In this document: positions 9,692 through 49,864 of the stretch, piece after piece
Numbering within the stretch: the stretch's first letter is position 1
How the letters are laid out: each line of letters opens with the position of its first letter
Assembly (NCBI GenBank): GCA_044368015.1
Contig: JBIPLF010000004.1
Span: forward strand, 246-64,245
DNA length: 64,000 bases
Direction of reading: 5' to 3'
Origin: Rickettsiales bacterium
Lineage (GTDB): Bacteria > Pseudomonadota > Alphaproteobacteria > Rickettsiales > RI-342
Translations under genes and position numbers: made by a program
The notes under the pieces: model-generated
Told to the model about the DNA's origin: nothing
Database searches by the model: none
What the model saw: only the letters and a program-made list of their open reading frames with translations

Positions 9692-9746
9692 CCCTCTGTT
9701 AAACAAACCCTGTTTTACTCGTTGCAAACCACATCAGGAGCCACCC

Positions 9747-11653: not shown

Positions 11654-12238
11654 ATGACAGCACCATCTAACTTTATCCTCGCCTCCGCCTCTCCCATCCG
11701 GGCGCAGATGCTACGTGAGGCCGGATGCGTGTTTGACGTCATTGCCGCCCCCGATAGTGCAGAAGAAGCCACCAAATCCACGCTTGCAGATGCCCCTCCG
11801 CCAGAACGGGCGCGGTTACTGGCCATTGCCAAGGCGAAAGCCGTCAGCCTCACCCACCCGGAACGGCTGGTAGTGGGGGCGGATCAGGTCTGCGCGTTGG
11901 GGAAGAATATCCTCTCCAAACCGGGATCGCGGAAACGGGCGACCCAGCAATTACAGGCACTTTCCGGACAGACACACCACCAGCATAGCGCGGCCTGTAT
12001 CCTGCGCAATGGCGAGCTGCTGTGGTCGGAAGTCGCCACCGCCCACCTCACCATGCATCCCCTGTCGCTCACGGCAATCACCGACTATCTCGACCGCGAC
12101 CAGCCCTTTGGCTCCTGCGGCAGCTACCGGTTCGAGGGGACGGGCAAGGCGCTCTTCAGCCGTATCGAGGGAGATGCCTTCACCATTCAGGGACTTCCCT
12201 TGATTCCCCTGCTTTCTGCGCTACAAAGGGTGGCATGA
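11654..12238 (+). CDS. maf: Maf-like nucleoside triphosphate pyrophosphatase
   Basis: [15 protein letters not shown]-terminus and GSYRFEG / IQGLP C-terminal motifs. Stop overlaps the mutS start (ATGA). Confidence 0.85.
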
Positions 12239-33150: not shown

Positions 33151-33870
33151 ATGTCAGGGACCATAGGTAAACGAGCGAAGCCGAAAGGCAAAAAGCGCCT
33201 AAGCAATATCGGTGGACCGCTGGATGAACAGCGGAACTGGTATCAGGATCGCTATCAGTATGCTCTGGTACAGCGGAACGTGCTGGCCATGGTTGCGCTC
33301 CTTTCGTTGTTTATTGCCTTGTTTGCAGCCATTACCTCTTCGCAGCTATCGCCGCAGAAGTCGGTGAAACCCTTTATTATCCAGATTGATGATAAAACCG
33401 GGATTACGCAGGCCGTTGACCCTCAAAAGTATCAGGAAATCAGCGCAAATGAGTCATTGAAACGCTATTTCATTGCCCAGTATATCCGTGCCAGAGAAAC
33501 CTACGATCCGGCAACCAATTCGCACGACATTGAATCAGTTCGGGTCATGTCATCACCGGAAGTGTTCGAGGGGTACAAGGAGTATATATCGCCCAAAAAC
33601 CCGGAAAGCCCGGTCAACCTCTTTGAAGATAAATCTAAGCGGGTGATTCGCTTTAAATCTCTTACTTTCCTGATGCCAGACGTCGCACAAGCCCGCATCA
33701 GCGCGGTTGTGCAGGGGGACAAAGAGCGTAAATATCCAGAGGAGCACCGGATAGTGGTCGTAAAATTTGAGTTTGTTAAACTTGACCTGAATCTGCAGGA
33801 GCGGTTGATTAATCCTCTCGGATTCAGGGTTGTCAGTTACCGCGAGAGCGAGGAGATCATATCCCAATGA
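33151..33870 (+). CDS. virB8: type IV secretion system protein VirB8
   Basis: WYQDRYQ, a single TM helix and YFIAQYIRARETYD are VirB8 family signatures. AT-richer than the flanks. Confidence 0.85.
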   Translation: MSGTIGKRAKPKGKKRLSNIGGPLDEQRNWYQDRYQYALVQRNVLAMVALLSLFIALFAAITSSQLSPQKSVKPFIIQIDDKTGITQAVDPQKYQEISANESLKRYFIAQYIRARETYDPATNSHDIESVRVMSSPEVFEGYKEYISPKNPESPVNLFEDKSKRVIRFKSLTFLMPDVAQARISAVVQGDKERKYPEEHRIVVVKFEFVKLDLNLQERLINPLGFRVVSYRESEEIISQ

Positions 33871-34697
33871 AGCATCTCATAGCCATTTGTCTGTCGGTTC
33901 CGTTGCTTTTAGCAGCCCAGCTCACGCATTCTGCCCACGCGCAGGAGATGCTGCTCCCTGCTGTTTCTGCTCCGGTTGTATCGGATAGCCGTATTCGAAC
34001 GCTGGTGTATAACCCAAACGAGGTATACAAAATCGTTGCCCACTACGGGTATCAGTCCAACATTGAGTTTGGCGTGCGCGAAGATATCCAGACGATTTCC
34101 CTAGGCGATCAGGTAGCATGGCAGGTAGTGCCATCCGGACGCTTCCTGTTCATTAAGCCGATGGAATCGCAGGCTCGCACCAACATGACTGTGGTCACTT
34201 CCAAGCATGTCTATCAGTTCGATTTGACCGCTCGCCCGGCAGAGAATGCAGTAGACGAAGAGCTCTCTTATGTGATTCGCTTCTTTTACCCAGAAGCCGG
34301 CACTCAGAACCCAACTCCAGCGCCATCCTATGCCGAGCCTGCACTCCCTCAGCCATCTGCACCGCTTGCGACCAATATCGCCATGGCGTCCCCTTCGCCC
34401 TCTCCAGCGATTGGTGGGGGGACCCCTTCCTACAATTTCCAGTACACGCTTTCGGGCCGGACCGCTTTTGCACCCGAACGGGTGTTTGATGATGGTACTC
34501 ACACTTATTTTCAATTCTCCAGCGGCACCATTCCTCAACTTGCAACCGTGGATGCGCAGGGCAAGGAACAACCCCTGCAATACAATGATACGGGGGATTA
34601 TGTCGTTGTCCCCACCGTCGCAAGCCAGTTCACGTTGCGTTATGGCGGCGGTTTGGTCTGCGTCTTTAACGAAACCATGCAGCCGGGCAGGATGTAA
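33867..34697 (+). CDS. virB9: type IV secretion system protein VirB9
   Basis: Signal peptide, then IRTLVYNPNEVYKIVAHYGYQSNIEF...TNMTVVTSKHVYQFDL (VirB9/CagX/TrbG pattern). ATGA overlap with virB8. Confidence 0.85.
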   Translation: MKHLIAICLSVPLLLAAQLTHSAHAQEMLLPAVSAPVVSDSRIRTLVYNPNEVYKIVAHYGYQSNIEFGVREDIQTISLGDQVAWQVVPSGRFLFIKPMESQARTNMTVVTSKHVYQFDLTARPAENAVDEELSYVIRFFYPEAGTQNPTPAPSYAEPALPQPSAPLATNIAMASPSPSPAIGGGTPSYNFQYTLSGRTAFAPERVFDDGTHTYFQFSSGTIPQLATVDAQGKEQPLQYNDTGDYVVVPTVASQFTLRYGGGLVCVFNETMQPGRM

Positions 34698-34702
34698 TCG
34701 CC

Positions 34703-35893
34703 ATGGTAGACTCCCCTCCAGAATTTGACGCCATAGAGCAGGAAGAGGATTCCTCCTCGCTTGATAAACGCAAAACGGTTGTTTCTGCGGCCCCCAATCG
34801 CACGTTGTTGATTCTTGCGATCGTCGGTGCCGCGTTTATTTTCTTCCTGTACCTGATCTTTAGCGGCGGGGACAAGAAGGAAAAAGAGCTGGTGGATGAC
34901 GCACTGAAGGCACAAAAAGTAGGCGATAAAGACGCAGACGCCTTACCTCCGCCTATAGCAGCCCCTCTTCCGCCGCCACCGCCGCCGCCGCCACCGCCGC
35001 CGCCTCCACCGCCGCCGGTTTCTCCGGATCAGGCTGGCTTTGATGCTGTGGATCCGAATTTGGATGCACGTCGGGCACGTCTCAAATCTGAAATGATGGT
35101 GGTGGGCGGATCCATTTCTGATAAAGCCTCCAAGGCATTCTCCGGTAAATCGGAAGATAAAAAGGAAGTCGTCTCCACCCCAGACGACCCCAACAGCAAA
35201 TTTGCGGAATCGGTCTATAAAACAGAGGCCGAGCAGGCTGAAGCCACCAGTATTGGCGACCTGGATCGTACCATTGCCGAAGGCAAGGTGATTGATATTG
35301 TGTTGGAAACAGCGATCAACACTTCGTTACCCGGAACGCTGCGCGCCATTGCTGCCCGCGATATTTATGCAGAACAGGGCCGCAATATCCTGATTCCAAA
35401 AGGGTCGCGGATGATTGGCAAATACAACACAGCGGTACGTCGTGGACAAAACCGTGTCTATATTGTGTGGACACGCCTCATCCGTCCGGATGGCATCGAT
35501 GTCCCCATTCAGTCGGAGGGGACCGATCAGCTCGGTCGCTCCGGTACAGAGGGCATTGTGGATGCAAAGTACATGGAGATCTTCTCCAGCGCGCTACTGG
35601 TCAGTGCTGTGACCATCGGTGCGGCCTACGGGGTGGAACAGATTGTGGATGATCCTCAAACCACGCGCCGCCGTTTCAGTGATGGTAGCAGCGAACAGAA
35701 CGGCTCGCCCACTGCCTTAGCGGCTCAGGACAATCTGGAGCGTATCGGCAAAACCGCCACCTCACTGATCGAAGAATTTATTGATCTACGACCGGTGATC
35801 CATATCCCTCAGGGCACGCAGATGAAAATCTTCGTAAACCGGGATCTGGTATTTCCAGAGAGCATCCTGAACCGTGTGCGCGTGATTCCATGA
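34703..35893 (+). CDS. virB10: type IV secretion system protein VirB10
   Basis: N-terminal TM helix, 16-Pro tract, and a C-terminal TrbI/VirB10 barrel (GKVIDIVLETAINTSLPG...ILIPKGSRMIGKY). Confidence 0.85.
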   Translation: MVDSPPEFDAIEQEEDSSSLDKRKTVVSAAPNRTLLILAIVGAAFIFFLYLIFSGGDKKEKELVDDALKAQKVGDKDADALPPPIAAPLPPPPPPPPPPPPPPPPVSPDQAGFDAVDPNLDARRARLKSEMMVVGGSISDKASKAFSGKSEDKKEVVSTPDDPNSKFAESVYKTEAEQAEATSIGDLDRTIAEGKVIDIVLETAINTSLPGTLRAIAARDIYAEQGRNILIPKGSRMIGKYNTAVRRGQNRVYIVWTRLIRPDGIDVPIQSEGTDQLGRSGTEGIVDAKYMEIFSSALLVSAVTIGAAYGVEQIVDDPQTTRRRFSDGSSEQNGSPTALAAQDNLERIGKTATSLIEEFIDLRPVIHIPQGTQMKIFVNRDLVFPESILNRVRVIP

Positions 35894-36885
35894 GTTTTAC
35901 TGCTCTTGAAACCTACCTTGCGCCACTGGAAGCCCTGTTTGCGATGGAAGGGGTGACGGAGATTTCCATTAACCGCCCACTGGAAGCCTGGGTGGAGCAA
36001 TATGGGGAGATGTCTTACCACGCCATTCCGCAATTTGACCTCGACCATCTGAAATCGCTCGGCCGCCTGATTGCGCAATCCACCGAACAGATGATCAGCG
36101 AAGAACGCCCGCTGCTCTCGGCCACACTTCCGGCCGGGTTCCGTATTCAGGTGGCTTTCCCACCCGCATGCGAGCCGCGCACGGTGTGTATGTCCATCCG
36201 CAAACAAACCATTCTGGATTTCGATCTGGATAGGTACGAAGCGCTGGGTGCTTTCGAAATGACCGCCGTCAGCAAGCAGGACAATAAGGTAGACCTTGAG
36301 CTGCGTGATCTGCTCAATAAGGGGGAAATCAAAGCCTTCCTGATTAAGGCGGTGCGGGCACGCAAAAACATGATCATCAGCGGTGGTACTTCGACCGGTA
36401 AAACCACCTTCCTCAACGCCGTGCTGAAAGCCATTCCGGAGAAGGAACGCATCATCACCTGCGAGGATGCCCGCGAGGTAGAGCTAAAACATATTCCCAA
36501 CCGCGTGCATCTGTTGGCCTCACGCGGGGATCAGGGGCGTGCTCAGGTGACCATGCAAGATCTCATCGAGGCCTGTTTGCGCTTGCGTCCGGATCGTATC
36601 ATCGTGGGTGAGTTGCGCGGGAAGGAGGCCTTCAGCTTTCTGCGGGCCGTGAATACCGGCCATCCAGGGTCCATCACCACCATCCACGCCGATGCCCCCA
36701 TGCTGGCGATTGAGCAACTGGTGCTGATGCTGATGCAGGCGGGTATGGGCATCATGCGTGATCAGATTATTGCCTATGTAAACAACGTGATTGATATTGT
36801 GGTCCAGCTGAAACGCGGCGATAAAGGACGTCGCTTCGTGTCCGAAGTGTTCTTTAACGATGGACTGCAACAAGGATTTCATTGA
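35890..36885 (+). CDS. virB11: type IV secretion ATPase VirB11
   Basis: Walker [54 protein letters not shown]. Confidence 0.9.
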
Positions 36886-36887
36886 TC

Positions 36888-37724
36888 ATGACTCAGGTCG
36901 CCGTTGGTTCCCTTACCATCGCCAATCATCTGCCGTTTGTGTTGCTGGCGGGTCCCTGCCAGATGGAATCCCGCGACCACGCTTTCATGGTGGCCGGGCA
37001 ATTAAAAGAAATCACCGAAAATCTGGGGATAGGGCTGGTTTACAAAAGCTCTTTCGACAAGGCTAATCGTACCAGCCTGCATAGCCAGCGCGGCATTGGT
37101 ATGGAAAAAGCGCTATCGGTGTTTGAAGCGATCAAAAAAGAGCTGCACCTCCCCGTGATGACCGATGTGCACGCGCCCGACCATTGCGCCGAAGTGGCCT
37201 CGGTGGTGGATGTATTGCAAATTCCGGCGTTCCTGTGCCGTCAGACCGATCTGCTGGTTGCCGCCGCCCAAACCAAACGCGCCATCAACATCAAAAAAGG
37301 GCAGTTTCTGGCCCCGTGGGATATGCGCCATGTGGTACAGAAAATGCGCGATTCCGGGAATGATCAGGTAATGGTGTGCGAGCGCGGCGCCAGTTTTGGC
37401 TACAACACGCTGGTCACCGATTTCCGATCTCTGCCCATTATGGCGGAAACCACCGGTCAGCCGGTAGTGTTCGACGCCACCCATTCCGTGCAGCAACCCG
37501 GAGGCATGGGCGGTGCATCGGGTGGTGAGCGGCGCTTTGTCCCCATCCTTGCCCGTGCGGCGGTGGCGGTGGGGATTGCAGCCATTTTTATGGAAACGCA
37601 CGAAAATCCGGATGCTGCCCCCAGTGACGGCCCTTGCATGGTACCGCTGGCGGATATGCCCAATTTGCTGGCTGATTTACAAGCACTGGACCGCCTGACC
37701 AAAGCGCGTGCCGTCGCCGCATGA
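36888..37724 (+). CDS. kdsA: 3-deoxy-8-phosphooctulonate (KDO-8-P) synthase
   Basis: [35 protein letters not shown] lies 2 nt after the virB11 stop. Confidence 0.9.
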
Positions 37725-39493
37725 GCACGCTCGCGCACCATCATCTGGAAGGGGTGCGCCGCTGGATGCAACAGCACGGATTGCATGCCTATCTGCTGCC
37801 GGTGAATGACGCGTTTTTCAGCGAATACCCCCCCGCCAGCGAGCGTCGTCTGGAATGGCTCACCGGTTTTAGCGGATCGGCCGGGATGCTCGCCATCACC
37901 GCGCAGAAAGCCCGCCTGTTTGTGGATGGGCGCTACACGCTTCAGGCGGCAAACGAAGTCGATTCCCATTTCTTTGAGGTGGTCAACAGTGCCTCCCTAC
38001 AACCGGAGGTCTGGTTGCGGGATGTACTGTCGCCGGGGATGCAGGTGGGGCTTGACCCCACACTTTTCAGCATACGCAACGAACGGCGCATCCGGCATGC
38101 CCTCAAAGAAGTGCGGATTGCCACCCTCTCCATTCCGGAAAACCCGATCGACCTCTTATGGCAGGACCGCCCTGCCCCGCCGCACAGTCAGGTGGAGGTG
38201 CATCCCATCACCTATAGCGGCAAGATTGTGCCGGAAAAACGCACCGATCTCTCCTGCCTGCTACAGGAACGCCACGCCCATGCCCTGTTTATCGCCGCGC
38301 CGGATTCGGTGAACTGGCTGCTGAATATCCGGGGACGCGACGTGCCCCATACGCCGATCGCGCAACTTCATGCGATGTTGTACATGTCTGGCGAGGTCGC
38401 ATTGTTTGCAGAGAGCGACCGTATTCCAGAGGATGTACGCGAGCATCTGGGGGGTGCGGTGCATCTGCATGATCCATCGGAATTGCAACAAAAGCTCGCC
38501 GATATGGCCGGGGAGCGGGTATGGGTGGATGACGCCCATACCAGCGCATGGATCAAGCAGATGTTAAAAGACGTCAAAGCCTGCATTCTGTACGATCCTG
38601 ACCCTTGTCAGGCGATGAAGGCCGTCAAGAATCCCATCGAGCTGGAGGGGATGCGCAACGCCCATCGGCGCGACGGAGTGGCGCTCACCCGCTTTCTACA
38701 CTGGCTGGAGCAGCAAGTAACAGCGGGCGCGCCGCTCTCGGAATTATCGGTGGCAGAGCGGCTCGAAGCTTTCCGCCGTGAGGATCCCCTGCTGCGTGAT
38801 CTAAGCTTCCCCACCATTGCCGGGTTTGGCGCCAACGGGGCGATTGTCCATTACCGGGCGAGTGAGGCCTCCAATCAGGCCATCCGCGCTCCGGGGTTGC
38901 TGCTGCTGGATTCCGGCGGTCAATACCTGAACGGCACCACGGATGTCACCCGCACCATCGCCATTGGTACGCCCAGCGAGGAACAGAAACACGCCTATAC
39001 CACGGTGCTGAAAGGCCATATTCAACTGGCCATGGCCATATTCCCGCAAGGAACCTGCGGCTCGCAACTGGATGTGCTGGCGCGTGACCCGCTCTGGCGC
39101 GCCGGGATGGATTACGATCACGGCACCGGCCATGGGGTTGGCTGTTATCTGAGCGTCCATGAAGGGCCGCAACGCATTTCCAAACGGGGGGGCGATGCGC
39201 CGCTGGAAGCGGGGATGATCCTCTCCAACGAGCCGGGTTATTACCGGGAAGGCGCGTTTGGCATCCGGCTCGAGAATCGGGTGTCGGTGGTGCCTGCCCC
39301 CCTCCGGGGCTTTCTGGCGTTTGAAACCCTGACGCTCGCGCCGCTGGACCTCTCTCTGATCCTGTCGGAATTACTCTCGCCGGAAGAGAAACGCTGGGTT
39401 CGCGACTACCATCAACGGGTCTATAGCCTGCTGGCCGATCACCTGCCCCACGACACCGCGCAGTGGTTGGAACAGATCGCTCGCCGGAGCTAA
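37721..39493 (+). CDS. pepP: Xaa-Pro aminopeptidase (M24B, aminopeptidase P family)
   Basis: 590 aa with metal-ligand motifs [25 protein letters not shown] overlap with kdsA. Confidence 0.8.
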
Positions 39494-39898: not shown

Positions 39899-40096
39899 TT
39901 AAGGGGTATGTTCCTCTAGCGCTAACACCACGTCGAGTGCTAGAGCTATCTGCTTATTACTGTATCCAGGGCCAACCGATTGAGCTATTTGATCAGCTAG
40001 CTTCTGATCTGGCTGGATGGGCAAACCACTATCTACTGCCGTTTTTACCAAGCTAGCTATCTGTAGTGCTTCATTACGTTCCTGTTGTGTAGGCAT
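39899..40096 (-). CDS. hypothetical small protein (65 aa), AT-rich
   Basis: ATG 40096 is preceded by GGAAGGGA. The upstream part of the 132-aa track ORF is a read-through of the repeat at 40197-40301. No recognisable motif. Confidence 0.3.
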   Translation of the reverse strand: MPTQQERNEALQIASLVKTAVDSGLPIQPDQKLADQIAQSVGPGYSNKQIALALDVVLALEEHTP

Positions 40097-40196
40097 TGGC
40101 TTTCCCTTCCGATGTTCTTTGATGTAGGCGAGGGAAGGTGCCCCACGGATGTGTCTTTTTTTTTTCAAGCTGATGACACTTTTATGACAATGTGGG

Positions 40197-40301
40197 GCAT
40201 GCTGAGTGAAGCGAAGTATCTCTCCGCTTGGAATGATGTGACAGATGCCTTGTTCTGTTGAGAGATGCTTCCCCTTCGCTCCACTCAGCGTCAGCATGAC
40301 G
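40197..40301. repeat. family B palindromic element
   Basis: gcatgctgagtgaagcgaagtatctctc...gagagatgcttccccttcgctccactcagcgtcagcatgacg. Confidence 0.8.
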
Positions 40302-40345
40302 TAACACCACTAGCCACCAGCCACCACATCCGCTATACCCACCCT

Positions 40346-41377
40346 ATGCGGGTGCTTACCATCATGTTGGGGCGCGGGCTGGGTGGCATTGAACAAGCCT
40401 TTGTCGACCAGGCGGAAGCGCTTCAGGCCGTGGGATGCGAGGTGTTATCGGTCACCGATAGCCGCGCACAGATTCGTACGGTTCTGGATCGGCGGTTTCT
40501 CCCCTATCGCACGCTGCGGCAGCATGGCCCGTGGGACCCGCTCGCGGTGGTGTATCTCAAACGATTGATTGCCGATTTTCGCCCGCAGGTGGTGGTGGTG
40601 CATGGCAATCGCGCACTGGGGTTTGCGGCGCGCATCCATCCCCGACCCTGCCCGATTGTGGCGGTGGCGCACAACCCTTGGGTAAAACGCTTTCCCAAAG
40701 CCGATGGCTGCATTGCCATTACCCCGGAGATTGCTGAGCATCTTCAGCGGGCGGGGGTGCAGGCGGAACGGATTTTCGTGGTGCCGAACATGATTGCCAT
40801 CGACCCGCAGATGTGGCTGCCGATGCGTGGCTGGCATCAACCGCCGGTGATTGGCGCGCTGGGGCGGATGGTGGGGAAGAAAGGCTTTTCCACCTTCATC
40901 CATGCGTTGGGGATGCTGCGGAATCACGATGTACCCTTCCAGGCGATGCTGGCGGGTGATGGTCCGGAACGGGCGGCGCTCGAAGCACAGGTCGCCAAAT
41001 TGGGCCTTCAGCATCAGGTGCAGTTTGTCGGCTGGATTGAGAACAAACACACCTTCTTTGAAAATATCGACGTGTTTTGCCTTCCCTCCTGGCAGGAGCC
41101 GTTTGGTATTGTGCTGCTAGAGGCGATGCGCGCCGGTGTGCCGATTGTTGCCACCCGTTCCGGTGGGCCATCCTACATTCTGGAGCATCAGCACACGGCA
41201 CTCCTCACCGCCGTGGGAGATGCCGCGCAACTCGCCGATGCGCTGGAGGCCATCCTCACCCATCCGGATGAGGCGCTGAGTTTAGCGGAAAACGCCTACC
41301 ACACCGTGTGCGATCGCTATGCCGTGGAGATAGTGGCGGAGGAATTGCTCCATGTGTTGCAGCGGGTGGTGCAATGA
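40346..41377 (+). CDS. glycosyltransferase family 4 (GT-B)
   Basis: MRVLTIMLGRGLGGIEQ N-terminus and EX7E region SWQEPFGIVLLEAMRAGVPIVAT. Confidence 0.8.
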   Translation: MRVLTIMLGRGLGGIEQAFVDQAEALQAVGCEVLSVTDSRAQIRTVLDRRFLPYRTLRQHGPWDPLAVVYLKRLIADFRPQVVVVHGNRALGFAARIHPRPCPIVAVAHNPWVKRFPKADGCIAITPEIAEHLQRAGVQAERIFVVPNMIAIDPQMWLPMRGWHQPPVIGALGRMVGKKGFSTFIHALGMLRNHDVPFQAMLAGDGPERAALEAQVAKLGLQHQVQFVGWIENKHTFFENIDVFCLPSWQEPFGIVLLEAMRAGVPIVATRSGGPSYILEHQHTALLTAVGDAAQLADALEAILTHPDEALSLAENAYHTVCDRYAVEIVAEELLHVLQRVVQ

Positions 41378-43545
41378 GCAAAAAACGCTCCAAAAAACCT
41401 CAAAAACCCTCGGTTCGGATGCGTAAATTACGTGCCCGTTTTGCGGTGGCCTTTGTGGTGTTTGCGGTGCTTTCCTCGGTGACGAGCTACCTGCTGCTGA
41501 CCCAACACACCGATTTTAGGGGCCTGCAAAACGGTCTGGTGCCGCTGCTCGTGGGGATTAACCTGCTGTTTTTGCTGGTGCTGACCATCATCATCTTCCG
41601 GCGGATTGTGCGGCTGGTGGTGGCCCGTAAAAAGGGGTCGGCAGGTTCGCGGCTGCATACGCGGATTGTCACCATGTTCAGCGTGGTGACAATCGTTCCC
41701 GCCATTGTGGTGTCGGTGTTTTCGGTGATGTTCTTCACCATGGGCGTGAAATCCTGGTTTGAAACCAAGGTCAGCACCGCGCTGGAGGAATCGGTGGCGG
41801 TGGCGGAGGCCTACCTGAAAGAGCATAAGGAGGGGTTGCGCGCCGACGTGTTGGCGATGGCGATCGACCTCAACCGCGAATCCTACTGGATCACCACCGA
41901 CCCGCGGATGCTCAATCAATTCGTGTCGCAACAGGTGGTGATGCGTTCGCTTGCCGAGGCGATTGTGTTTCAGCCCGGACGGGTGCTGGCGCGCTCCAGC
42001 CTCAGTTTTGAGCTGGCCTTTGAGCAAATCCCCGAGGAACTCATCACCCGCGCCGCCGCCGGAGAGGTGGTGCTCATCACCAATGAGAGCGAAGACCGGA
42101 TGCGCGCACTGGTGCGTCTGGAAGGGTTCATCAACAGCTTTCTGCTGGTGGAACGGTTTGTCGATCCGCGGGTGATCCACCATATGGAAGCCACCCACGG
42201 CGCGGTGGCGGAGTATCACGACATTCAGAAGCAAATCTCCCATTGGGAACGGCGGTTTATCTTCGCCTTTGCGGTGATGGTGCTGATTCTGCTGCTTGCC
42301 TCCATCTGGTACGGGATGGTGTTTGCCAACAAGCTGGTGCGGCCGATCGGGCAGCTTTTCAACGCAGCGGAACGGGTGCGGGCGGGGGATTTTCGTGTCA
42401 AGGTGAAGGAGTCCTCCAAGCAGGATGAGCTTTCGGAGTTCACGCGCGCCTTTAACAAAATGATCCAACGCCTTGAACAACAACGCGAAGGCATCGTAGA
42501 AGCCAACCGGCAGCTCGATGCCCGGCGGCGCTTCACCGAAGCGGTGCTGGCGGGGATGTCCGCCGGGGTGATTGCGCTGGATGGCAATGGCTGCGTCACC
42601 CTGTCCAACCGTTCGGCGATGCAATTACTGGAGATGGACGTGCAGCAGGTGCAGGGACGATTCCTCTCCATGCTGGTGCCGGAAATGGAGGCCTTGTTGC
42701 TCTCCGCCCAGAGCAAACCGGGTAGCGTCGCCCAGCAGGATGTTGAGGTGCGGCGCGGCAGCGCGGGGCGGCAGGTGCTCAATGTACGCATCAGCAGCGA
42801 GGAGCGCGATGGTGAAATCACCGGCTATGTGGTGACGTTCGACGATGTGACGGAACTCCTCTCCGCGCAGCGCAAAGCGGCATGGGCGGGGGTAGCGCGC
42901 CGGATTGCGCATGAGATCAAAAACCCGCTGACGCCCATTCAACTTTCCGCCGAGCGGCTGAAACGCAAATATGCAGGTCAAATCACCGAAGACCGCGACA
43001 CCTTCATCCGTTATACCGACAACATCACCCGCAATGTGGGGAATATCGGCAAAATGGTGGAGGAATTCGTCGCCTTTGCGCGGATGCCGCAACCGGTCTT
43101 TGCGCCGGAGGATATCGGCGCGATCCTGCGCGATGTGGTGGCGGGCGAGCGGTTGGCGCATCCTGGCATCACCTATCGGCTCGCCCTGCCAGACGCGCCC
43201 GTGATGCTGCAATGCGATGCCGGGCAGATGAGCCAGTGCCTCATCAATATTCTAAAGAATGCCGCAGAATCACTTGAAGAACAAGGAAACATTCTACAGG
43301 AAATTGCGCTGAGCGTCACCTCAGACACGCAGATTGTGCATCTGGAGATTCAGGATACCGGCCCCGGCTTTCCGGAGGAATTGATGGGTAAACTCACCGA
43401 ACCCTACATGACCACCCGTGCAAAGGGTACGGGGTTGGGGCTGGCGATTGTCAGCAAAATCATACAAGACCATCACGGCACGCTGACCCTCGCCAACCGT
43501 TCCGACGGCCACGGCGCGCGGGTGGAAATCACCCTGCCGGTGTAG
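41374..43545 (+). CDS. ntrY: sensor histidine kinase NtrY-like (multi-TM + HAMP + PAS + HisKA + HATPase)
   Basis: Four N-terminal TM helices, HAMP, PAS, H-box RRIAHEIKNPLTPIQLSAERLKRKY, G-box [22 protein letters not shown] overlap with the GT4 gene. No ntrX follows. Confidence 0.8.
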   Translation: MSKKRSKKPQKPSVRMRKLRARFAVAFVVFAVLSSVTSYLLLTQHTDFRGLQNGLVPLLVGINLLFLLVLTIIIFRRIVRLVVARKKGSAGSRLHTRIVTMFSVVTIVPAIVVSVFSVMFFTMGVKSWFETKVSTALEESVAVAEAYLKEHKEGLRADVLAMAIDLNRESYWITTDPRMLNQFVSQQVVMRSLAEAIVFQPGRVLARSSLSFELAFEQIPEELITRAAAGEVVLITNESEDRMRALVRLEGFINSFLLVERFVDPRVIHHMEATHGAVAEYHDIQKQISHWERRFIFAFAVMVLILLLASIWYGMVFANKLVRPIGQLFNAAERVRAGDFRVKVKESSKQDELSEFTRAFNKMIQRLEQQREGIVEANRQLDARRRFTEAVLAGMSAGVIALDGNGCVTLSNRSAMQLLEMDVQQVQGRFLSMLVPEMEALLLSAQSKPGSVAQQDVEVRRGSAGRQVLNVRISSEERDGEITGYVVTFDDVTELLSAQRKAAWAGVARRIAHEIKNPLTPIQLSAERLKRKYAGQITEDRDTFIRYTDNITRNVGNIGKMVEEFVAFARMPQPVFAPEDIGAILRDVVAGERLAHPGITYRLALPDAPVMLQCDAGQMSQCLINILKNAAESLEEQGNILQEIALSVTSDTQIVHLEIQDTGPGFPEELMGKLTEPYMTTRAKGTGLGLAIVSKIIQDHHGTLTLANRSDGHGARVEITLPV

Positions 43546-43560
43546 CGGACCGGAGACGCA

Positions 43561-44844
43561 CTACGCCGCCAACGCACTCTTACGTTGCTCAATCCGTGCT
43601 TCAATCTCCGGACGGAAATGGCGGATAAGCCCCTGAATCGGCCAGGCGGCGGCATCGCCGAGTGCACAGATCGTATGCCCTTCGATCTGTTTGGTGAGCG
43701 CATGGAGCTGGTCGATCTCCGCCAGTTCAGCATCGCCTCGCACCATGCGATCCATGATGCGTGACAGCCACCCGGTTCCCTCGCGGCAGGGGGTGCATTG
43801 CCCACAGGATTCATGCATGTAGAATTTCGAGAGCCGCGCAATCGCCCGCACAATATCGGTGGATTTATCCATCACAATCACCGCCGCCGTTCCAAGACCG
43901 GACTGCACGGCGCGCAGCGAATCGAAATCCATCAGCACCGTATCGCAGGTGGTTTTAGGCAACACCGGCACCGAGGAACCGCCGGGGATGACGGCCAGCA
44001 GATTATCCCATCCACCGCGCACCCCGCCCGCATGTTTTTCAATCAGTTCCTTAAGCGGAATGCCCATTTCCTCTTCGACATTGCAGGGCTTATTCACATG
44101 GCCGGAAATGCAGAACACCTTGGTTCCGGTATTGTTGGGGCGGCCGATTTTCGCAAACCACTCCGCTCCACGCCGCAGAATCGTCGGCACCACGGCGATA
44201 CTCTCCACATTATTGACGGTGGTGGGGCATCCCCACACCCCGCAGGCGGCTGGGAAAGGCGGCTTCAGACGCGGCTGTCCCTTTTTGCCTTCCAGGCTTT
44301 CGATCAGCGCGGTTTCCTCGCCACAGATATAGGCCCCTGCCCCGCTATGGACGTAGATATCGAAGTCGAACCCGCTGCCGCAGGCATTCTTGCCGATCAG
44401 TTTCGCCGCATAGGCCTCGTCGATGGCGGATTGCAGCGCCAGAATCTCCTGATAAAATTCCCCGCGCACATAGATATAGGCGGCTTTGGCGCGGATCGCA
44501 AAACCCGCAATCAGGCAACCTTCCACTAATTTATGCGGGTCGTGACGCATCATGTCACGGTCTTTACAGGTACCCGGCTCGCCCTCATCGGCATTGACCA
44601 CCAGATAGGAAGGCCGCCCGTCCGACTGCTTGGGCATGAAGGACCATTTCATCCCGGTGGAGAACCCCGCCCCTCCGCGACCGCGCAGGCCCGAAGCCTT
44701 CACCTGATCGATGATCCATTCCTGCCCCTTGGTGAGAATCTCTTTAGTGCCATCCCAATCACCACGCGACTTCGCAGCCTGAAGGCCCGCGCTCGCCTGC
44801 CCATAGAGATTGGTAAAAATACGATCGGAATCGGAAAGAGCCAT
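43561..44844 (-). CDS. nuoF: NADH-quinone oxidoreductase subunit F (51-kDa, FMN/NADH-binding)
   Basis: [19 protein letters not shown] site and the 4Fe-4S motif [12 protein letters not shown]. Confidence 0.95.
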
Positions 44845-44877
44845 AAACGCACTTCTTGGTTAAGAAAAATGTACCAG

Positions 44878-45135
44878 CTAACGTAACACCCATTCACCGG
44901 TTTCACGGATGGCAGCGTACATGGCATCTGGGGCGAGATCAACTCCTCCCGGCCATGTCACGGCTCCGCCCTCAATATAGGCCTCTGCAAATGTGGCGGG
45001 ATTCCTCAAACTGGCAAAAACACCCGTCAGATGCGAAGGCTCAAAACGTACGACCCCCCTCGTTCCATCCAGAAAAGAGACCTGAAGCTCAAGGGGGGGG
45101 GACACCATTATTTCACGTACATCCCAATACATCAC
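44878..45135 (-). CDS. DUF2442 domain protein
   Basis: 85 aa. The C-terminal GGAVTWPGGVDLAPDAMY resembles the DUF2442 signature. GTG 45135 or ATG 45132 start, 1 nt after the preceding stop. Confidence 0.65.
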   Translation of the reverse strand: MMYWDVREIMVSPPLELQVSFLDGTRGVVRFEPSHLTGVFASLRNPATFAEAYIEGGAVTWPGGVDLAPDAMYAAIRETGEWVLR

Positions 45136-45136
45136 T

Positions 45137-45409
45137 CTACTCCAGTGGGGGAACGGGTTTTGGAAGCTGTTTCGCCTGACAGCAAGCCCAGTTGTCCAAC
45201 AGCTCCTTCTGATGCAATTCAGCCCAATCCATGATCAGTTCTTGTGCACGACGGGGCACATTGCCTTCGATACATCTTAAATTTTCAATGTCAAATGTCG
45301 CTTTATGACCACCATATTCCGCGTGGAAGTGTGGCGGAGCATGATCGTTAAAGAACATCCGGATCACAATACCAAAGAATTGGCTGATAGTGGGCATCGT
45401 TTTTTCCAA
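45137..45409 (-). CDS. DUF4160 domain protein
   Basis: MPTISQFFGIVIRMFFNDHAPPHFHAEYGGHKATF matches the DUF4160 N-terminal signature. The likely real start is ATG 45397, since the track start 45409 is TTG. Confidence 0.7.
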   Translation of the reverse strand: MEKTMPTISQFFGIVIRMFFNDHAPPHFHAEYGGHKATFDIENLRCIEGNVPRRAQELIMDWAELHQKELLDNWACCQAKQLPKPVPPLE

Positions 45410-45655
45410 TCATGAGGGCAATCCGTTTTCATCATACCCCAGTATTTCGTCCGGAGAGCGTGGATCCAGTACAGGAAGGGCTGCACACTCCGCTCCAATC
45501 GCCAGAATCCGCCGGATGCGCTCTTTCCGCCCCTCCTCTTCCTGAATGCTTTTCGTCAAGGCTTCTTCGATCGCCTGCTCCACGGAAATACCACGCATGA
45601 TCGCCAACGCCTCTGCCATTTTTGGAATGGCTGGGTTCTCGATATGGAGTTCCAT
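45410..45655 (-). CDS. vapB: VapB-type antitoxin, Rv0623/PSK-operon transcription factor family
   Basis: 81 aa. The layout (N-terminal ribbon region, charged linker, C-terminal ECAALPVLDPRSPDEILGYDENGLPS) parallels M. tuberculosis VapB30-type antitoxins. Starts 1 nt after the nuoE stop. Confidence 0.75.
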   Translation of the reverse strand: MELHIENPAIPKMAEALAIMRGISVEQAIEEALTKSIQEEEGRKERIRRILAIGAECAALPVLDPRSPDEILGYDENGLPS

Positions 45656-45656
45656 G

Positions 45657-46292
45657 CTATTTCACCTCTTTAAGCGTCGTGCGGCCGCCTTCGGGTGCCG
45701 AAGTCTGACGATCCACCTGCGGGCCGGGTTTGGGCAGCGTCCCCTGTTTCAGGCTATCGAGAATCTTGACCGTGGTTTCGGCGGTTAGGTCCTCGTAGAA
45801 CTGGATGTAGTTGGCATCGTCGGCGTCGTGATGGTTGATCTGCATCATGGGTGCATTGACGCAGGCCCCCAGACATTCCACCTCTGCGAGGGTAAATTTG
45901 CCGTCGCCCGTCGTTTCGCCGGGCTGAATACCGAGATGCCTCTCACAGGCCTCCATCACCTGATCCGACCCACGCAGCCAACAGGGCGTAGTGGTGCAGA
46001 CCTGCACAAAATGCGTACCCACAGGCGCCAGATTATACATGCTGTAGAAACTGGCCACTTCGTACACGCGGATATAGGGCATCCCCAGCATCTCGGCGAT
46101 GGTGTCCATCGCGGCGCGGGGAATCCAGCCGCCATGCTGGCGTTGCGCCAAGTCGAGCAGCGGCATCACTGCGCTTTGCTGAAACCCTTCCGGGTATTTG
46201 GCAATGAAATGCTCCGCCCGCTTTAGGTTTTCAGGCGTGAACGCGAAGGTACGGGGTTGCTCAAAAGCAGCTGGGGCAGCGGAATGGGCCAT
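45657..46292 (-). CDS. nuoE: NADH-quinone oxidoreductase subunit E (24-kDa, 2Fe-2S)
   Basis: Thioredoxin-like fold with the Cys pattern VCTTTPCWLRG ... ECLGACVNAP. Confidence 0.95.
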   Translation of the reverse strand: MAHSAAPAAFEQPRTFAFTPENLKRAEHFIAKYPEGFQQSAVMPLLDLAQRQHGGWIPRAAMDTIAEMLGMPYIRVYEVASFYSMYNLAPVGTHFVQVCTTTPCWLRGSDQVMEACERHLGIQPGETTGDGKFTLAEVECLGACVNAPMMQINHHDADDANYIQFYEDLTAETTVKILDSLKQGTLPKPGPQVDRQTSAPEGGRTTLKEVK

Positions 46293-46356
46293 GAATTCAC
46301 CTAATGTTCAAACATTCGCGCCACTATGCCGGGTTCGATCGCGCTTTTCAAGTGCG

Positions 46357-47343
46357 CTACACCAACCCCACCCGCTGATGCACCGCCTGCATGGTTTGTG
46401 CTGCAATCGGCCGCACACGGTCGAGGCTTTTTTGCAACACCGACCGCACGTAAGGCTGGTCGTCCTGCAACCGGCGCATCTCCGCCGTAATAGGCGAGAG
46501 GGTCGCCACGGCAAGCTCGGTCAATGCCTCTTTGAACTTGGAGAAGTTATAGGAAGCAAACTGCGCTTCCACCTCTGCACGCGGCAAATCCGCGAGCGCA
46601 GCGTAAATCGTCAGCAGATTCGAGGCCTCCGGACGGGTTTGCGGATCATATTGCATCCCCTCCAGCATATCGGATTTCGCCTTGCGGATTTTCAGCGCAA
46701 TCGTGTCTGCATCGTCGGTGAGGTTGATCCGCGCATAGTCAGAGCTGTCCGACTTGCTCATCTTCTTCGTGCCATCGCGCAAACTCATGACCCGTGCGGC
46801 CTGACTAAGGATCATCGGCTCCGGCAGCGGGAAATACTCCTCTCCCACGGCGCGGTTAAAGGCCCCGGCGATGTCGCGCATCAGTTCGATATGTTGTTTT
46901 TGATCCTCACCCACCGGCACATGGGTCCCGTGATACAGCAGCACATCTGCCGCCATCAATACGGGATACGCATACAACCCCAGCGGTGCTTTTTCCTTAT
47001 CCTTCCCCGATTTTTCCTTGAACTGCGTCATGCGGTTGAGCCAGCCAATCGGCGTATGGCAGTTGAATATCCAGGCCAGCTCCGCGTGCCCACTCACGGC
47101 CGATTGCGGAAAAATCGCGCTTTTTTCGGGGTTGATCCCGCAGGCGATGAAGGCCGACGCGGTTTCCAGTACGCTTGCCCGCAGCGCGTCCGGATCCTGC
47201 GGCACGGTGATCGCGTGCAGATCCGCCATAAACACCAGACATTCTTTCTCGTGCTGCAAGGCCACCGTGGGACGAATCATCCCCAGATAATTCCCCAAAT
47301 GCAGATGCCCGCTGGGCTGCACCCCCGATACGATACGTTGCAT
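46357..47343 (-). CDS. trpS: tryptophan--tRNA ligase
   Basis: VSGVQPSGHLHLGNYLG (HIGH region) and KMSKSD. ATG 47343 is preceded by GGAGG. Confidence 0.9.
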   Translation of the reverse strand: MQRIVSGVQPSGHLHLGNYLGMIRPTVALQHEKECLVFMADLHAITVPQDPDALRASVLETASAFIACGINPEKSAIFPQSAVSGHAELAWIFNCHTPIGWLNRMTQFKEKSGKDKEKAPLGLYAYPVLMAADVLLYHGTHVPVGEDQKQHIELMRDIAGAFNRAVGEEYFPLPEPMILSQAARVMSLRDGTKKMSKSDSSDYARINLTDDADTIALKIRKAKSDMLEGMQYDPQTRPEASNLLTIYAALADLPRAEVEAQFASYNFSKFKEALTELAVATLSPITAEMRRLQDDQPYVRSVLQKSLDRVRPIAAQTMQAVHQRVGLV

Positions 47344-47455: not shown

Positions 47456-49864
47456 ATGACCGAATCCGCCCTGCAACGTTACCCGCTGCTGCCGTTACGC
47501 GATATTGTCGTGTTTCCGAGCATGATCGTGCCCCTGTTCGTGGGACGCGAGAAGTCCGTCAAGGCGCTGGAGGATGTGGTGCGCACGGATAAGAAAATCC
47601 TGCTCGTCGCGCAACGCAACGCCAATCAGGATGATCCCGGTCCCAAGGATTTATACCGCGTGGGGACGCTCGCCAGCATCCTGCAACTGCTGAAACTCCC
47701 CGATGGCACGGTGAAAGTGCTGGTGGAAGGGCTGGAGCGCAACAAGATTGTCGAATATCTGGAAGCCCCCGGCTACTACGCCGTCCACGCAGAAAAACTG
47801 CATGATGCATCGGGCAGCGCAGAAGATGTGCAGGCGCTTACCCGCTCGCTGATGGCGCGGTTTGAGGAATATATCAAGCTCAACAAGAAGATTCCGCCGG
47901 AAGTGCTGGGCGCACTGAATCAGGTAGAAGATGCCGGAAGGCTGGCCGATACCATCGTCTCACACATGGCGCTCAAAATTCCGGACAAACAGCAGGTGCT
48001 GGAGCTTTCGGACATCGCCAAGCGGTTGGAGAAAGTCTACGGCTTTCTGGAGAGCGAAATCAGCGTGCTCAACACGGAGAAACGCATCCGTTCCCGCGTC
48101 AAGCGCCAGATGGAGAAAACCCAGCGCGAATATTATCTGAATGAGCAGATGAAAGCGATTCAGAAAGAGCTGGGCGAAACCGAGGAAGGCAAAGACGAAT
48201 ACAGCGAGCTGGAAGACAAGATCAAAAAAACCCGCATGACCAAAGAGGCGAAGGACAAAGCCAAAGCGGAGATGAAAAAACTCCGCACCATGAGCGCGAT
48301 GTCGGCGGAAGCCTCGGTGATTCGTAACTATCTGGAATGGCTGGTGAGCATTCCGTGGAAGAAATTCTCCCGCGTCAAGAAAGACCTGCGCGAAGCCCAA
48401 AGCGTGCTGGATCACGACCATTACGGGCTGGAAAAGGTCAAGGAACGGATTCTGGAGCATCTGGCCGTGCATCAACGCACCGGCGCGGTGCAGGGGTCGC
48501 TGCTATGCCTTGTCGGCCCTCCAGGTGTAGGAAAAACCTCGCTGGCACGCTCTATCGCACGGGCCACGGGCCGCAAATATGTGCGGATGTCTCTTGGTGG
48601 TGTGCGGGACGAAGCCGAGATTCGCGGCCATCGCCGCACCTATATCGGCTCCATGCCGGGGAAAATCATCCATAGCATGAAGAAGGCCGGAGCCTCTAAC
48701 CCGCTGTTACTGCTGGATGAAATCGACAAAATGGGGCATGATTTCCGGGGCGACCCGGCCGCCGCCCTGCTGGAGGTGCTGGACCCTGAACAAAATAAGG
48801 AATTCAGCGATCACTATCTGGAAGTGGATTACGACCTCTCCAATGTGATGTTCATCTGCACGGCGAACTCGCTGAAAATGCCGCGTCCGCTGCTCGACCG
48901 GATGGAGATCATCCGCCTTTCCGGTTACACGGAACGCGAGAAGGTGGAAATCGCCAAGCGCCACCTCATCGCCAAGCAACGCAAAGAACATGGGGTGAAG
49001 GAAGGCGAACTGACCATCACCGAAGACGCCCTGCGCGACACCATCCGCTACTATACCCGCGAGGCGGGAGTGCGGAATCTGGAACGGGAACTTGCCAAAC
49101 TCTGCCGTAAAACGGTGCGGGAAATCCTGTTAGGCGGTACGCAGCATGTGACGATCACGGCGGAGAATCTCAGTGAATATCTGGGCGTGCGGAAGCATAA
49201 TTTCGGCGTGGCAGAGCTGGAAGATCTGGTGGGCGTCACCACCGGCCTTGCCTATACCGAGGTCGGCGGCGACCTGCTACAAATTGAAGCGGTAACCGTT
49301 CCCGGCAAGGGCAAGCTCACCATCACCGGACAGTTGGGCGAAGTGATGCAGGAATCCGCGCAGGCGGCAATGAGCTTTGTGCGCTCGCGCTGTCTGGATT
49401 TTGGCATTATTCCACCGGAATATCAGAATGTGGATATCCACGTCCATGTTCCGGAAGGCGCGGTGCCGAAGGACGGCCCCTCGGCGGGTGTCGCCATGAC
49501 CACCACGATTGTTTCCGTGCTCACCGGCATTCCGGTGCGGAAAAACGTGGCCATGACGGGCGAGATCAACCTGCGCGGCGCGGTGACCGCCATCGGCGGC
49601 TTAAAGGAGAAGCTCCTCGCGGCGCTGCGTGGCGGCATTGATACCGTGCTGATCCCTCAGGAGAATGTGAAAGACTTGGAGGACATCCCCGATGAGGTCA
49701 AAAACGGCCTGACCATCATCCCTGTGCTCACGGCAGAGGAAGCGCTGAAAATCGCCCTCTCCCGTCCCTTTGAGCGCCGGGAATGGACCCCTCCCCTGCC
49801 CGCGATCCCGCTCGCCGCCATCGCGGAGGAAGAGGCGGATGACGAGGTGCGGCGGAAGCATTAG
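47456..49864 (+). CDS. lon: ATP-dependent protease Lon
   Basis: LON N-domain, Walker A GPPGVGKTS, catalytic Ser motif PKDGPSAGVAMTT. Confidence 0.95.
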   Translation: MTESALQRYPLLPLRDIVVFPSMIVPLFVGREKSVKALEDVVRTDKKILLVAQRNANQDDPGPKDLYRVGTLASILQLLKLPDGTVKVLVEGLERNKIVEYLEAPGYYAVHAEKLHDASGSAEDVQALTRSLMARFEEYIKLNKKIPPEVLGALNQVEDAGRLADTIVSHMALKIPDKQQVLELSDIAKRLEKVYGFLESEISVLNTEKRIRSRVKRQMEKTQREYYLNEQMKAIQKELGETEEGKDEYSELEDKIKKTRMTKEAKDKAKAEMKKLRTMSAMSAEASVIRNYLEWLVSIPWKKFSRVKKDLREAQSVLDHDHYGLEKVKERILEHLAVHQRTGAVQGSLLCLVGPPGVGKTSLARSIARATGRKYVRMSLGGVRDEAEIRGHRRTYIGSMPGKIIHSMKKAGASNPLLLLDEIDKMGHDFRGDPAAALLEVLDPEQNKEFSDHYLEVDYDLSNVMFICTANSLKMPRPLLDRMEIIRLSGYTEREKVEIAKRHLIAKQRKEHGVKEGELTITEDALRDTIRYYTREAGVRNLERELAKLCRKTVREILLGGTQHVTITAENLSEYLGVRKHNFGVAELEDLVGVTTGLAYTEVGGDLLQIEAVTVPGKGKLTITGQLGEVMQESAQAAMSFVRSRCLDFGIIPPEYQNVDIHVHVPEGAVPKDGPSAGVAMTTTIVSVLTGIPVRKNVAMTGEINLRGAVTAIGGLKEKLLAALRGGIDTVLIPQENVKDLEDIPDEVKNGLTIIPVLTAEEALKIALSRPFERREWTPPLPAIPLAAIAEEEADDEVRRKH

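Follow-up and report, generated by a model that had tools for sequence, protein, structure and literature searches.

An isolated nuoE-nuoF gene pair split by a putative toxin-antitoxin cassette in a Rickettsiales bacterium

Background

In a 64,000-nucleotide stretch of a Rickettsiales contig (JBIPLF010000004.1; hereafter, the window), the complex I genes nuoE and nuoF stand apart from their usual neighbors and are separated from each other by three small open reading frames (ORFs). To which enzyme do the products of these two genes belong, and how did the genes come to be arranged in this way? An earlier note on this DNA offered two answers: either the complex I genes of this genome are dispersed, or the pair is an extra NADH dehydrogenase (diaphorase) module that serves another enzyme. 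There are precedents both for divided complex I clusters and for breaks downstream of nuoF, and split clusters have been reported across most clades (PMC12361115).

Results and discussion

Organization of the locus

The features of the locus are as follows.

trpS: 46357-47343, minus strand; tryptophan-tRNA ligase of 328 aa from the ATG at 47343 (TIGR00233, 307 bits, cut-off 177; Pfam tRNA-synt_1b; JGI call, 328 aa)
trpS-nuoE spacer: 46293-46356, minus strand; 64 nt, with an AGGTGA ribosome-binding sequence ahead of the nuoE ATG
nuoE: 45657-46292, minus strand; predicted complex I 24-kDa/NDUFV2-type subunit of 211 aa with the N1a [2Fe-2S] cluster (PF01257, E-value 4e-58)
vapB: 45410-45655, minus strand; predicted orphan VapB-family antitoxin (PSK_trans_fac/Rv0623-like) of 81 aa (PF07704, 68 bits, full-length)
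DUF4160 gene: 45137-45409, minus strand; putative DhiT-type toxin, with a likely start at the ATG at 45397 giving 86 aa (PF13711, 84.6 bits)
DUF2442 gene: 44878-45135, minus strand; putative DhiA-type antitoxin of 84-85 aa (PF10387, 42.4 bits, cut-off 24)
Spacer ahead of nuoF: 44845-44877, minus strand; 33 nt, AT-rich, CTGGTACATTTTTCTTAACCAAGAAGTGCGTTT
nuoF: 43561-44844, minus strand; predicted complex I 51-kDa/NDUFV1-type subunit of 427 aa with NADH and FMN sites and the N3 [4Fe-4S] cluster
ntrY/nuoF gap: 43546-43560, no strand; 15 nt between convergent stops, the break point of the nuo cluster, with no nuoG beyond
ntrY-type sensor histidine kinase gene: 41374-43545, plus strand; 723 aa with NtrY_N, HAMP, PAS, HisKA and HATPase_c domains
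lon protease gene: 47456-49864, plus strand; divergent from trpS-nuoE, with Pfam Lon domains

These ORF calls, with identities assigned by Pfam and NCBIfam, agree with the minus-strand order trpS, nuoE, three small ORFs and nuoF given in the earlier note. They agree also with its placing of the convergent ntrY stop 15 nt from that of nuoF, as ntrY ends at 43545 and the nuoF stop lies at 43561.

Soundness of the assembly

An arrangement of this kind could be an assembly artefact, in which nuoEF and flanks of other origin were fused into a chimeric contig, and misassembly at 43546-43560 or 46293-46356 had been raised as a reason to doubt it. nuoF is indeed conserved enough for assemblers to cross between organisms. 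However, both junctions are crossed at 100% identity by two independent Logan contigs (run SRR27335586), which between them span the outer and the cassette junctions. One contig (L088; 44293-47044, 100% identical) runs across the trpS/nuoE junction and the cassette into the first part of nuoF; the other (L089; 40047-44091, 100% identical) carries GT4, ntrY and, past the ntrY/nuoF junction, 530 nt of nuoF. An example of such a crossing is seen at the end of L089, where the sequence passes into a different nuoF and 46 differences fall within the final 186 nt. The flanks are uniform in base composition, and the contig is on record at both JGI and NCBI. We regard an artefact as extremely unlikely. 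A strain-level dN/dS estimate from L089 was rejected, because all 46 differences lie where this contig enters another organism's nuoF.

Absence of other nuo genes from the neighborhood

The earlier note saw no nuoA-D upstream and no nuoG-N downstream of the pair. This is borne out by tblastn searches in which all nuoA-N sequences of two relatives served as queries and which detect nuoE and nuoF alone in the 64-kb window, and by Pfam scans, which find no nuo families in its other long ORFs. The contig is 111.7 kb in length, and gene calls in the 10 kb past each end of the window (about 84 kb covered in all) likewise include no other nuo gene.

For comparison, we retrieved 80 alphaproteobacterial nuo loci. 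In these, nuoD abuts nuoE in 72 of 73 loci, and nuoG lies no more than 1 kb behind nuoF in 66 of the 70 loci that have enough downstream sequence. The detached nuoE-nuoF arrangement is unusual and is not a chance pattern. A break downstream of nuoF, or a solitary nuoF, also occurs in three of the retrieved loci (L023, L051 and L066). In L008, L066 and L070, nuoE is separated from nuoF by other genes, among them one for an MscS channel (L066) and one for a DUF3298 protein (L008). We found no close relative that would allow a before-and-after comparison: NuoF is at most 83% identical to its counterparts in 185,579 species genomes, the nearest NuoE among 5.8 billion proteins is 72% identical, the nearest NtrY is 54% identical, and the window's proteins form singleton clusters.

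NuoE and NuoF as complex I subunits

Judged by their sequences, NuoE and NuoF are orthologues of the mitochondrial/alphaproteobacterial type of complex I subunits, with no sign of relaxed constraint. Both proteins score above the cut-offs of their equivalog models (NuoF: NF010120, 833 bits, cut-off 389, and TIGR01959, 667 bits, cut-off 559; NuoE: NF005725, 243 bits, cut-off 220, and TIGR01958, 185 bits, cut-off 142). Among solved structures, NuoF matches plant NDUFV1 (757 bits) and the Paracoccus subunit (8qby, 722 bits), and the best match of NuoE is human NDUFV2 (230 bits), with the alignment reaching residue 209 of 211. Alignment to NDUFV1 shows the N3 motif of NuoF (ESCGQCTPC...ICALGD) and its FMN/NADH-binding motif to be intact, as are the N1a cysteines of NuoE (CTTTPC...CLGAC). 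When compared with 81 NuoF and 77 NuoE orthologues, none of 200 near-invariant columns is changed in NuoF and none of 30 in NuoE, and neither protein is an outlier in mean identity.

These data bear on the possibility that the pair stands alone, with the rest of complex I lost or unused, and either works as a soluble diaphorase (NADH:acceptor oxidoreductase) or feeds a different enzyme. The NADH modules HoxEF, FdsGB, HydBC and NfnBC share the fold and cofactor set of NuoEF and are also found away from nuo genes; matches in the PDB include NuoEF-like modules that do serve hydrogenases and formate dehydrogenases, and the roughly 84 kb covered here contain no further nuo gene. However, the HoxF, FdsB and HydB structures score only 245-344 bits against NuoF, under half of the complex I scores (720-757 bits), and NuoE is far under the cut-offs of the models for other enzymes (HoxE, 108 bits, cut-off 224; FdsG, 87 bits, cut-off 198). 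The full constraint on both proteins extends to a C-terminal region that NuoE has in common with NDUFV2. The stretch formed by the window and 10 kb on each side has no gene for a hydrogenase, a formate dehydrogenase or another possible partner. Moreover, relatives whose cluster is broken after nuoF keep nuoA-E or nuoH close by (L066 and L023). NuoE and NuoF are not Hox-, Fds- or Hyd-type modules, and we consider it unlikely that the pair functions by itself. Of the two answers in the earlier note, dispersal of complex I fits best, because the proteins are complex I orthologues without relaxed constraint and without a candidate partner nearby, and the adjoining lon gene (see below) agrees with it; the extra diaphorase module is disfavored.

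A probable remnant of the lon-nuo neighborhood

The surroundings of the pair suggest where it came from. In 31 of 47 loci, lon lies 6-10 kb upstream of nuoA, and the relative with the closest NuoE retains an intact tig-clpP-clpX-lon-hup-nuoA-N supercluster. Since lon adjoins trpS-nuoE in the window as well, the nuoE-nuoF pair looks like a remnant of this supercluster after its fragmentation; tblastn searches indicate that the window retains four of its members, namely tig, lon, nuoE and nuoF, and no others. lon is divergent from nuoE here but co-directional in relatives, and hup is missing, so several rearrangements must be assumed. No repeats flank the cassette or the nuoEF block beyond short matches at the level expected by chance.

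A complete nuoA-N operon might instead be present elsewhere, with the pair representing a duplicated or horizontally acquired second N-module. Some alphaproteobacteria have two complex I isozymes (PMC4859585). However, the pair sits beside lon, which is the ancestral nuo neighborhood, has third-position GC contents (GC3) of 0.68-0.71 that match host genes, and shows no accelerated divergence, and we regard this origin as improbable. Dispersal of the original genes would place the window among split complex I gene sets, such as those of Rickettsiales and of a bacteria-wide catalogue (PMC12361115), in which orthologous nuo genes occupy more than one locus. The window differs from other split sets in that it contains an isolated nuoE-nuoF pair, at about 58% GC and beside lon, with a toxin-antitoxin insert.

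A putative toxin-antitoxin cassette between nuoE and nuoF

Unidentified reading frames are present between structural genes of the nqo/nuo clusters of Paracoccus denitrificans and Rhodobacter capsulatus, and the earlier note compared the three small ORFs with these. The resemblance is limited to small, co-oriented, non-nuo ORFs lying between structural genes. tblastn searches with the cassette proteins detected no homologues in the 80 related nuo loci, which contradicts a role as nuo-type accessory frames. Unlike the Paracoccus and Rhodobacter frames, the window ORFs appear to be toxin-antitoxin genes of foreign composition, namely an orphan VapB antitoxin gene and a DUF4160/DUF2442 (DhiT/DhiA-type) pair. 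Their GC3 is 0.51-0.57 (0.51 for both the DUF4160 and the DUF2442 gene) versus 0.68-0.74, or about 0.70, for neighboring genes. The cassette comprises 811 bp and is located exactly at the nuoE/nuoF translational-coupling junction.

The predicted VapB protein has the full-length VapB-family antitoxin domain of VapBC systems with PSK_trans_fac/Rv0623-type VapB. In those systems, vapB is followed by a gene for the PIN-domain toxin VapC, and three homologues of about 50% identity (P0126, P0129 and P0142) each have a PIN/VapC gene directly downstream. In contrast, no PIN toxin gene lies beside the window vapB, and the next gene is that for DUF4160.

The DUF4160 and DUF2442 genes are adjacent and co-oriented, and are 4 nt apart when the DUF2442 ATG is used. 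They share two Pfam domains, toxin-first order and tight spacing with DhiT/DhiA of Dickeya dadantii 3937 (PMC8198452), whose dhiTA genes have this DUF4160/DUF2442 order (PMC8198452; PMC12065111). Growth inhibition by the toxin, neutralization by the antitoxin and autoregulation by the complex have been shown for the Dickeya system alone (PMC8198452); for the window pair, a toxin role is predicted from domains. The window pair also differs in having vapB ahead of it and no room for a promoter region of its own. The DUF4160 protein scores 86.1 bits with the DhiT equivalog model NF048015, under the cut-off of 100, and is best classified as a member of the wider DUF4160 family and not as an equivalog of Dickeya DhiT.

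DUF4160/DUF2442 pairs are found on plasmids of many phyla. The best plasmid match of the DUF4160 protein, at 59% identity, is on Thiobacillus pT3.2I, where the gene is followed by a DUF2442 gene and is next to rep; this one plasmid was inspected for a vapB gene upstream of a DUF4160 homologue. We considered whether the cassette is a conserved three-gene unit or a known defense system, and rejected both ideas: its DNA has no match in plasmids, PADLOC reports no defense-system match, and relatives of vapB pair with PIN genes, not with DUF4160.

Transcription and translation across the insertion

In relatives, nuoF typically starts at or near the end of nuoE: the distance from the nuoE stop to the nuoF start is -14 to +20 nt in 72 of 77 relatives, and at most 4 nt in 56 of the 77. 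In the window, the slot held by nuoF in relatives is taken by vapB, whose ATG is 1 nt past the nuoE stop, the same spacing that nuoF has in two of the loci (L037 and L074). A 33-nt spacer ahead of nuoF replaces the usual overlap or 1-4-nt junction. From nuoE to nuoF, the spacing is 1 nt to vapB, 12 nt to the DUF4160 gene (likely ATG), 4 nt to the DUF2442 gene (ATG) and 33 nt to nuoF.

We found no terminator-like site on the minus strand between trpS and nuoF, and none at 43546-43560 either. The trpS-nuoE spacer has one weak sigma-70-like match (46351-46323), which is not significant, because the promoter scan found three sites where 2.8 are expected. Given the gene spacing and the lack of a terminator-like site, it is a reasonable inference that nuoE, the cassette and nuoF are co-transcribed, as the earlier note had proposed. 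Its further suggestion, that co-transcription stabilizes the cassette against loss, is speculation. Toxin-antitoxin modules have their own addiction logic.

A more far-reaching hypothesis is that nuoE and nuoF are the sole nuo genes left. Their products, though barely distinguishable from complex I orthologues, would form a free-standing NADH dehydrogenase module, and their expression would be physically wired to the toxin-antitoxin cassette, the translation of vapB being coupled to that of nuoE. We view this as very unlikely. If the genome does have no other nuo genes, the locus would be an instance of an N-module that has outlasted the rest of complex I.

Proposed history and its significance

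The account that we favor is as follows. nuoE and nuoF would be original, functional genes that encode the NADH-oxidizing flavoprotein part of a mitochondrial-type complex I, in which NuoF would carry FMN and N3, and NuoE would carry N1a. Rearrangements in this lineage presumably broke the ancestral tig-clpP-clpX-lon-hup-nuoA-N supercluster such that nuoE-nuoF stayed beside lon, while nuoA-D and nuoG-N would have been relocated; these remaining genes are probably elsewhere in the genome. In a separate event, the 811-bp cassette, whose composition is foreign, would have been inserted precisely at the nuoE/nuoF junction. The five genes are most likely one transcription unit, which may begin upstream of nuoE or at trpS. 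The geometry of the locus suggests that vapB occupies the former coupled start site of nuoF, and that nuoF is now translated from its own start past the 33-nt spacer. Taken as a whole (dispersed complex I, nuoEF left by lon, separate insertion of the cassette and a single transcription unit), we judge this account to be probable.

The detached pair and its insert are a real but fairly ordinary outcome of genome rearrangement and gene insertion. The significance is limited: the locus clearly exemplifies how even a respiratory operon of 14 strongly conserved genes can come apart, here at the nuoD/nuoE and nuoF/nuoG boundaries. The two N-module genes were kept together, which agrees with the modular view of complex I. 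A mobile toxin-antitoxin cassette that settles on the coupling junction would take the start site of nuoF and thereby uncouple translation of NuoF from that of NuoE. Also, the locus is a caution for annotation pipelines that score the presence of complex I by clustered genes.

Other observations

ntrY is not followed by ntrX in the window. This raised the idea that the ntrY/nuoF junction represents two operons cut off at once, but the idea is weakened because the closest NtrY relative (L090) is likewise without an adjoining ntrX. An Rfam scan of the window identified one tRNA and nothing else.

A nuoE-nuoF block set apart from other complex I genes

On the minus strand of the window, the complex I genes nuoE and nuoF are separated by a cassette of three small ORFs (811 bp). 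This anatomy, reported in the earlier note, agrees with ORF order and with Pfam and NCBIfam matches.

Genes in the nuoE-nuoF region
46357-47343, minus strand, trpS
45657-46292, minus strand, nuoE
45410-45655, minus strand, first cassette ORF (vapB)
45137-45409, minus strand, second cassette ORF (DUF4160)
44878-45135, minus strand, third cassette ORF (DUF2442)
43561-44844, minus strand, nuoF
41374-43545, plus strand, ntrY-type histidine kinase gene, with 15 nt between 43545 and the nuoF stop codon

The observation that neither nuoA-D nor nuoG-N accompanies the pair also stands. As tblastn queries, the full nuoA-N complements of Azospirillum canadense (L003) and of the relative whose NuoE is closest (L086) matched only nuoE (65-72% identity) and nuoF (80%) in the window. 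Pfam scans of its other long ORFs detected housekeeping genes and no nuo families, and gene calls on the 111,716-bp contig (JGI metagenome 3300059473) revealed none in the 10 kb past each window end.

The possibility of misassembly at 43546-43560 or 46293-46356, raised previously, is contradicted by two contigs of an independent Logan assembly of run SRR27335586, which match every junction at 100% identity. One (L088) corresponds to window 44293-47044, covering the 3' part of trpS, nuoE, the cassette and the 5' part of nuoF; the other (L089) corresponds to 40047-44091, and reaches from a glycosyltransferase gene through ntrY and the 15-nt gap into nuoF, of which it includes 530 nt. An assembly artefact is therefore unlikely. 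L089 departs from the window only in its final 186 nt (L089 4046-4231, window 44092-44277; 46 differences), where it crosses into another organism's nuoF. This crossing accounts for the contig stopping there, and its end is a small assembly chimera within this highly conserved gene.

Identity of NuoE and NuoF

To explain the isolation of the pair, the earlier note had offered either dispersed complex I genes or an extra NuoEF diaphorase module. The former is better supported, by complex I orthology and by adjacency to lon. NuoF exceeds the cut-offs of models NF010120 (833 bits; cut-off 389) and TIGR01959 (667 bits; cut-off 559), as does NuoE those of NF005725 (243 bits; cut-off 220) and TIGR01958 (185 bits; cut-off 142). 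Models for HoxE (108 bits; cut-off 224) and formate dehydrogenase gamma (87 bits; cut-off 198) fail. Against solved structures, NuoF scores 757 bits with mitochondrial NDUFV1 and 722 bits with Paracoccus denitrificans complex I (8qby), compared with only 245-344 bits for HoxF, FdsB, HydB and NfnB; NuoE matches NDUFV2 over nearly its full length (230 bits). In structure alignments, the FMN/NADH motifs, N3 cysteines and N1a cysteines are all present. Alignments of 81 NuoF and 77 NuoE sequences from the retrieved loci gave no sign of relaxed or redirected selection: none of the near-invariant columns is changed (0 of 200 in NuoF, 0 of 30 in NuoE), and mean identities of the window's proteins are not outliers. 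Judged by sequence, the two genes are complex I N-module orthologues, and a stand-alone NuoEF module is improbable.

Rarity of the arrangement

Our comparison set consisted of 80 alphaproteobacterial loci picked by NuoF similarity, none from a close relative, since all are at most 83% identical in NuoF. In this set, nuoD adjoins nuoE in 72 of 73 loci, and nuoG begins within 1 kb after nuoF in 66 of the 70 with enough downstream sequence. The exceptions show the same breaks recurring.

Comparison loci with divided nuo genes
L066, nuoA-E, MscS channel gene and nuoF, followed by convergent surA and greA
L051, nuoE-nuoF, followed by a convergent symporter gene and genes of purine biosynthesis
L023, nuoF alone, flanked by bamD and an O-antigen ligase gene; nuoH close by on the opposite strand
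L070, nuoE, nuoF and nuoG with unrelated genes in between (2.4 and 2.9 kb)

According to a 2025 survey, most complex I clades mix split and single-cluster gene sets (PMC12361115). The window thus represents a minority arrangement of an already known kind, and we regard the nuoE-nuoF finding as real and of low to moderate significance.

Unrelated genes between nuoE and nuoF also occur in other alphaproteobacterial MAGs: the MscS channel gene of L066 (9123-9989), which likewise has no nuoG-N after nuoF, and a DUF3298 gene in L008 (9100-9990). The L070 inserts (7660-9900 and 11300-14100) include an OmpA-like gene and others. Insertions and breaks seem to recur at the nuoE/nuoF and nuoF/nuoG junctions.

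Ancestral neighbourhood

Just upstream of nuoA, lon is found in 31 of the 47 loci with enough upstream sequence, and the relative nearest in NuoE (72% identity; 3.79-Mb contig) has the order tig-clpP-clpX-lon-hup-nuoA...N. The window retains only four genes of that set, nuoE, nuoF and the two listed here, spread over 20 kb with altered orientations.

62578-63990, minus strand, tig
47456-49864, plus strand, lon

The window lacks clpP, clpX, hup, nuoA-D and nuoG-N. Because lon still adjoins trpS-nuoE, the pair is, on gene order, most likely the original copy, still in its ancestral place, as opposed to an extra module brought in from outside; that these genes constitute an extra nuoEF copy is quite doubtful. 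The present order requires several rearrangements, of no reconstructable sequence. As a separate observation, lon and tig lie 12.7 kb apart on opposite strands, where tig-clpP-clpX-lon is the usual linkage.

A toxin-antitoxin cassette

The idea that the cassette ORFs are accessory reading frames of the nuo type did not hold: tblastn matched none of their proteins in the 80 loci, and they correspond instead to toxin-antitoxin genes. The first encodes a full-length VapB-family antitoxin domain (PF07704). Homologues approximately 50% identical each have a PIN/VapC toxin gene directly after them; no PIN gene is present at the cassette, so this vapB is an orphan antitoxin gene. DUF4160 and DUF2442 are encoded by the second and third ORFs; they have the same domains and toxin-first order as the validated DhiT/DhiA system of Dickeya dadantii (PMC8198452) and are also on record as a toxin and immunity pair of wide distribution (PMC12065111). 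Because the DUF4160 protein scores 86 bits against the DhiT equivalog model (cut-off 100), it is a family member and not a DhiT equivalog. Plasmids from many phyla carry similar pairs; the best match, at 59% identity, is beside rep on a Thiobacillus plasmid. GC at third codon positions is 0.51-0.57 in the cassette versus 0.68-0.74 in neighbouring genes (13 long window genes: mean 0.69, standard deviation 0.04), a disparity that supports a probable horizontal origin.

Insertion site and probable transcription unit

The nuoF start lies -14 to +20 nt from the nuoE stop in 72 of 77 relatives. Stop and start most often overlap by one base or stand 1-4 nt apart, the classic layout of translational coupling. 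In the window, vapB begins with an ATG 1 nt past the nuoE stop (aaagaggtgaaatag C atg), and a nearly identical context precedes the nuoF start in comparison locus L037 (aaagaggtgaaggcctga C atg). The former coupled start site of nuoF is thus held by the first cassette gene, and nuoF itself now comes after 33 nt of AT-rich spacer containing an AAGAAG motif.

Successive gaps from nuoE to nuoF measure 1, 12 (to the likely DUF4160 ATG), 4 (to the DUF2442 ATG) and 33 nt. No minus-strand terminator-like site was found from trpS to nuoF, and the sole promoter-like match, located between trpS and nuoE, is no better than expected by chance. Given this geometry, a single transcript carrying nuoE, the cassette and nuoF is the most economical reading; that co-transcription stabilizes the cassette is speculation.

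The longest inverted repeat of the region (21 nt, 76% complementary, with a perfect 9-nt core, GGTGTAGCG/CGCTACACC) has its arms at 43539-43559 and 46343-46363, at both outer edges of the nuoE-nuoF block, overlapping the stop codons of ntrY and trpS. Its position is curious; a repeat of this strength is expected by chance in 3.1 kb (22 pairs listed).

Other features of the window

At 33151-39493 (plus strand), a type IV secretion block (virB8-virB9(CagX)-virB10-like-virB11) leads directly into kdsA (DAHP_synth_1) and a gene for aminopeptidase P, with stop codons that overlap the next start codons. Operon-like packing of unrelated genes also occurs where the glycosyltransferase gene (GT4) meets ntrY, and such strings suggest a compact, heavily rearranged genome. 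The ntrY gene (41374-43545) is flanked neither downstream by ntrX nor upstream by ntrBC; its nearest relative (L090 2495-4711; 54% identity; contig 46% GC) follows dusB, likewise without ntrBC or ntrX.

A hybrid histidine kinase at 17350-19366 (minus strand) appears to be divided between two ORFs that overlap and differ in frame (PAS+HisKA, 18485-19366; HATPase_c+REC+Hpt, 17350-18582), which suggests a frameshift, pseudogene or sequencing error. The adjacent genes at 19958-20842 and 20961-21839 (minus strand) share an unusual architecture, in which an N-terminal domain of approximately 170 aa with no Pfam match is followed by a C-terminal receiver domain; being 29% identical, they are old tandem paralogues.
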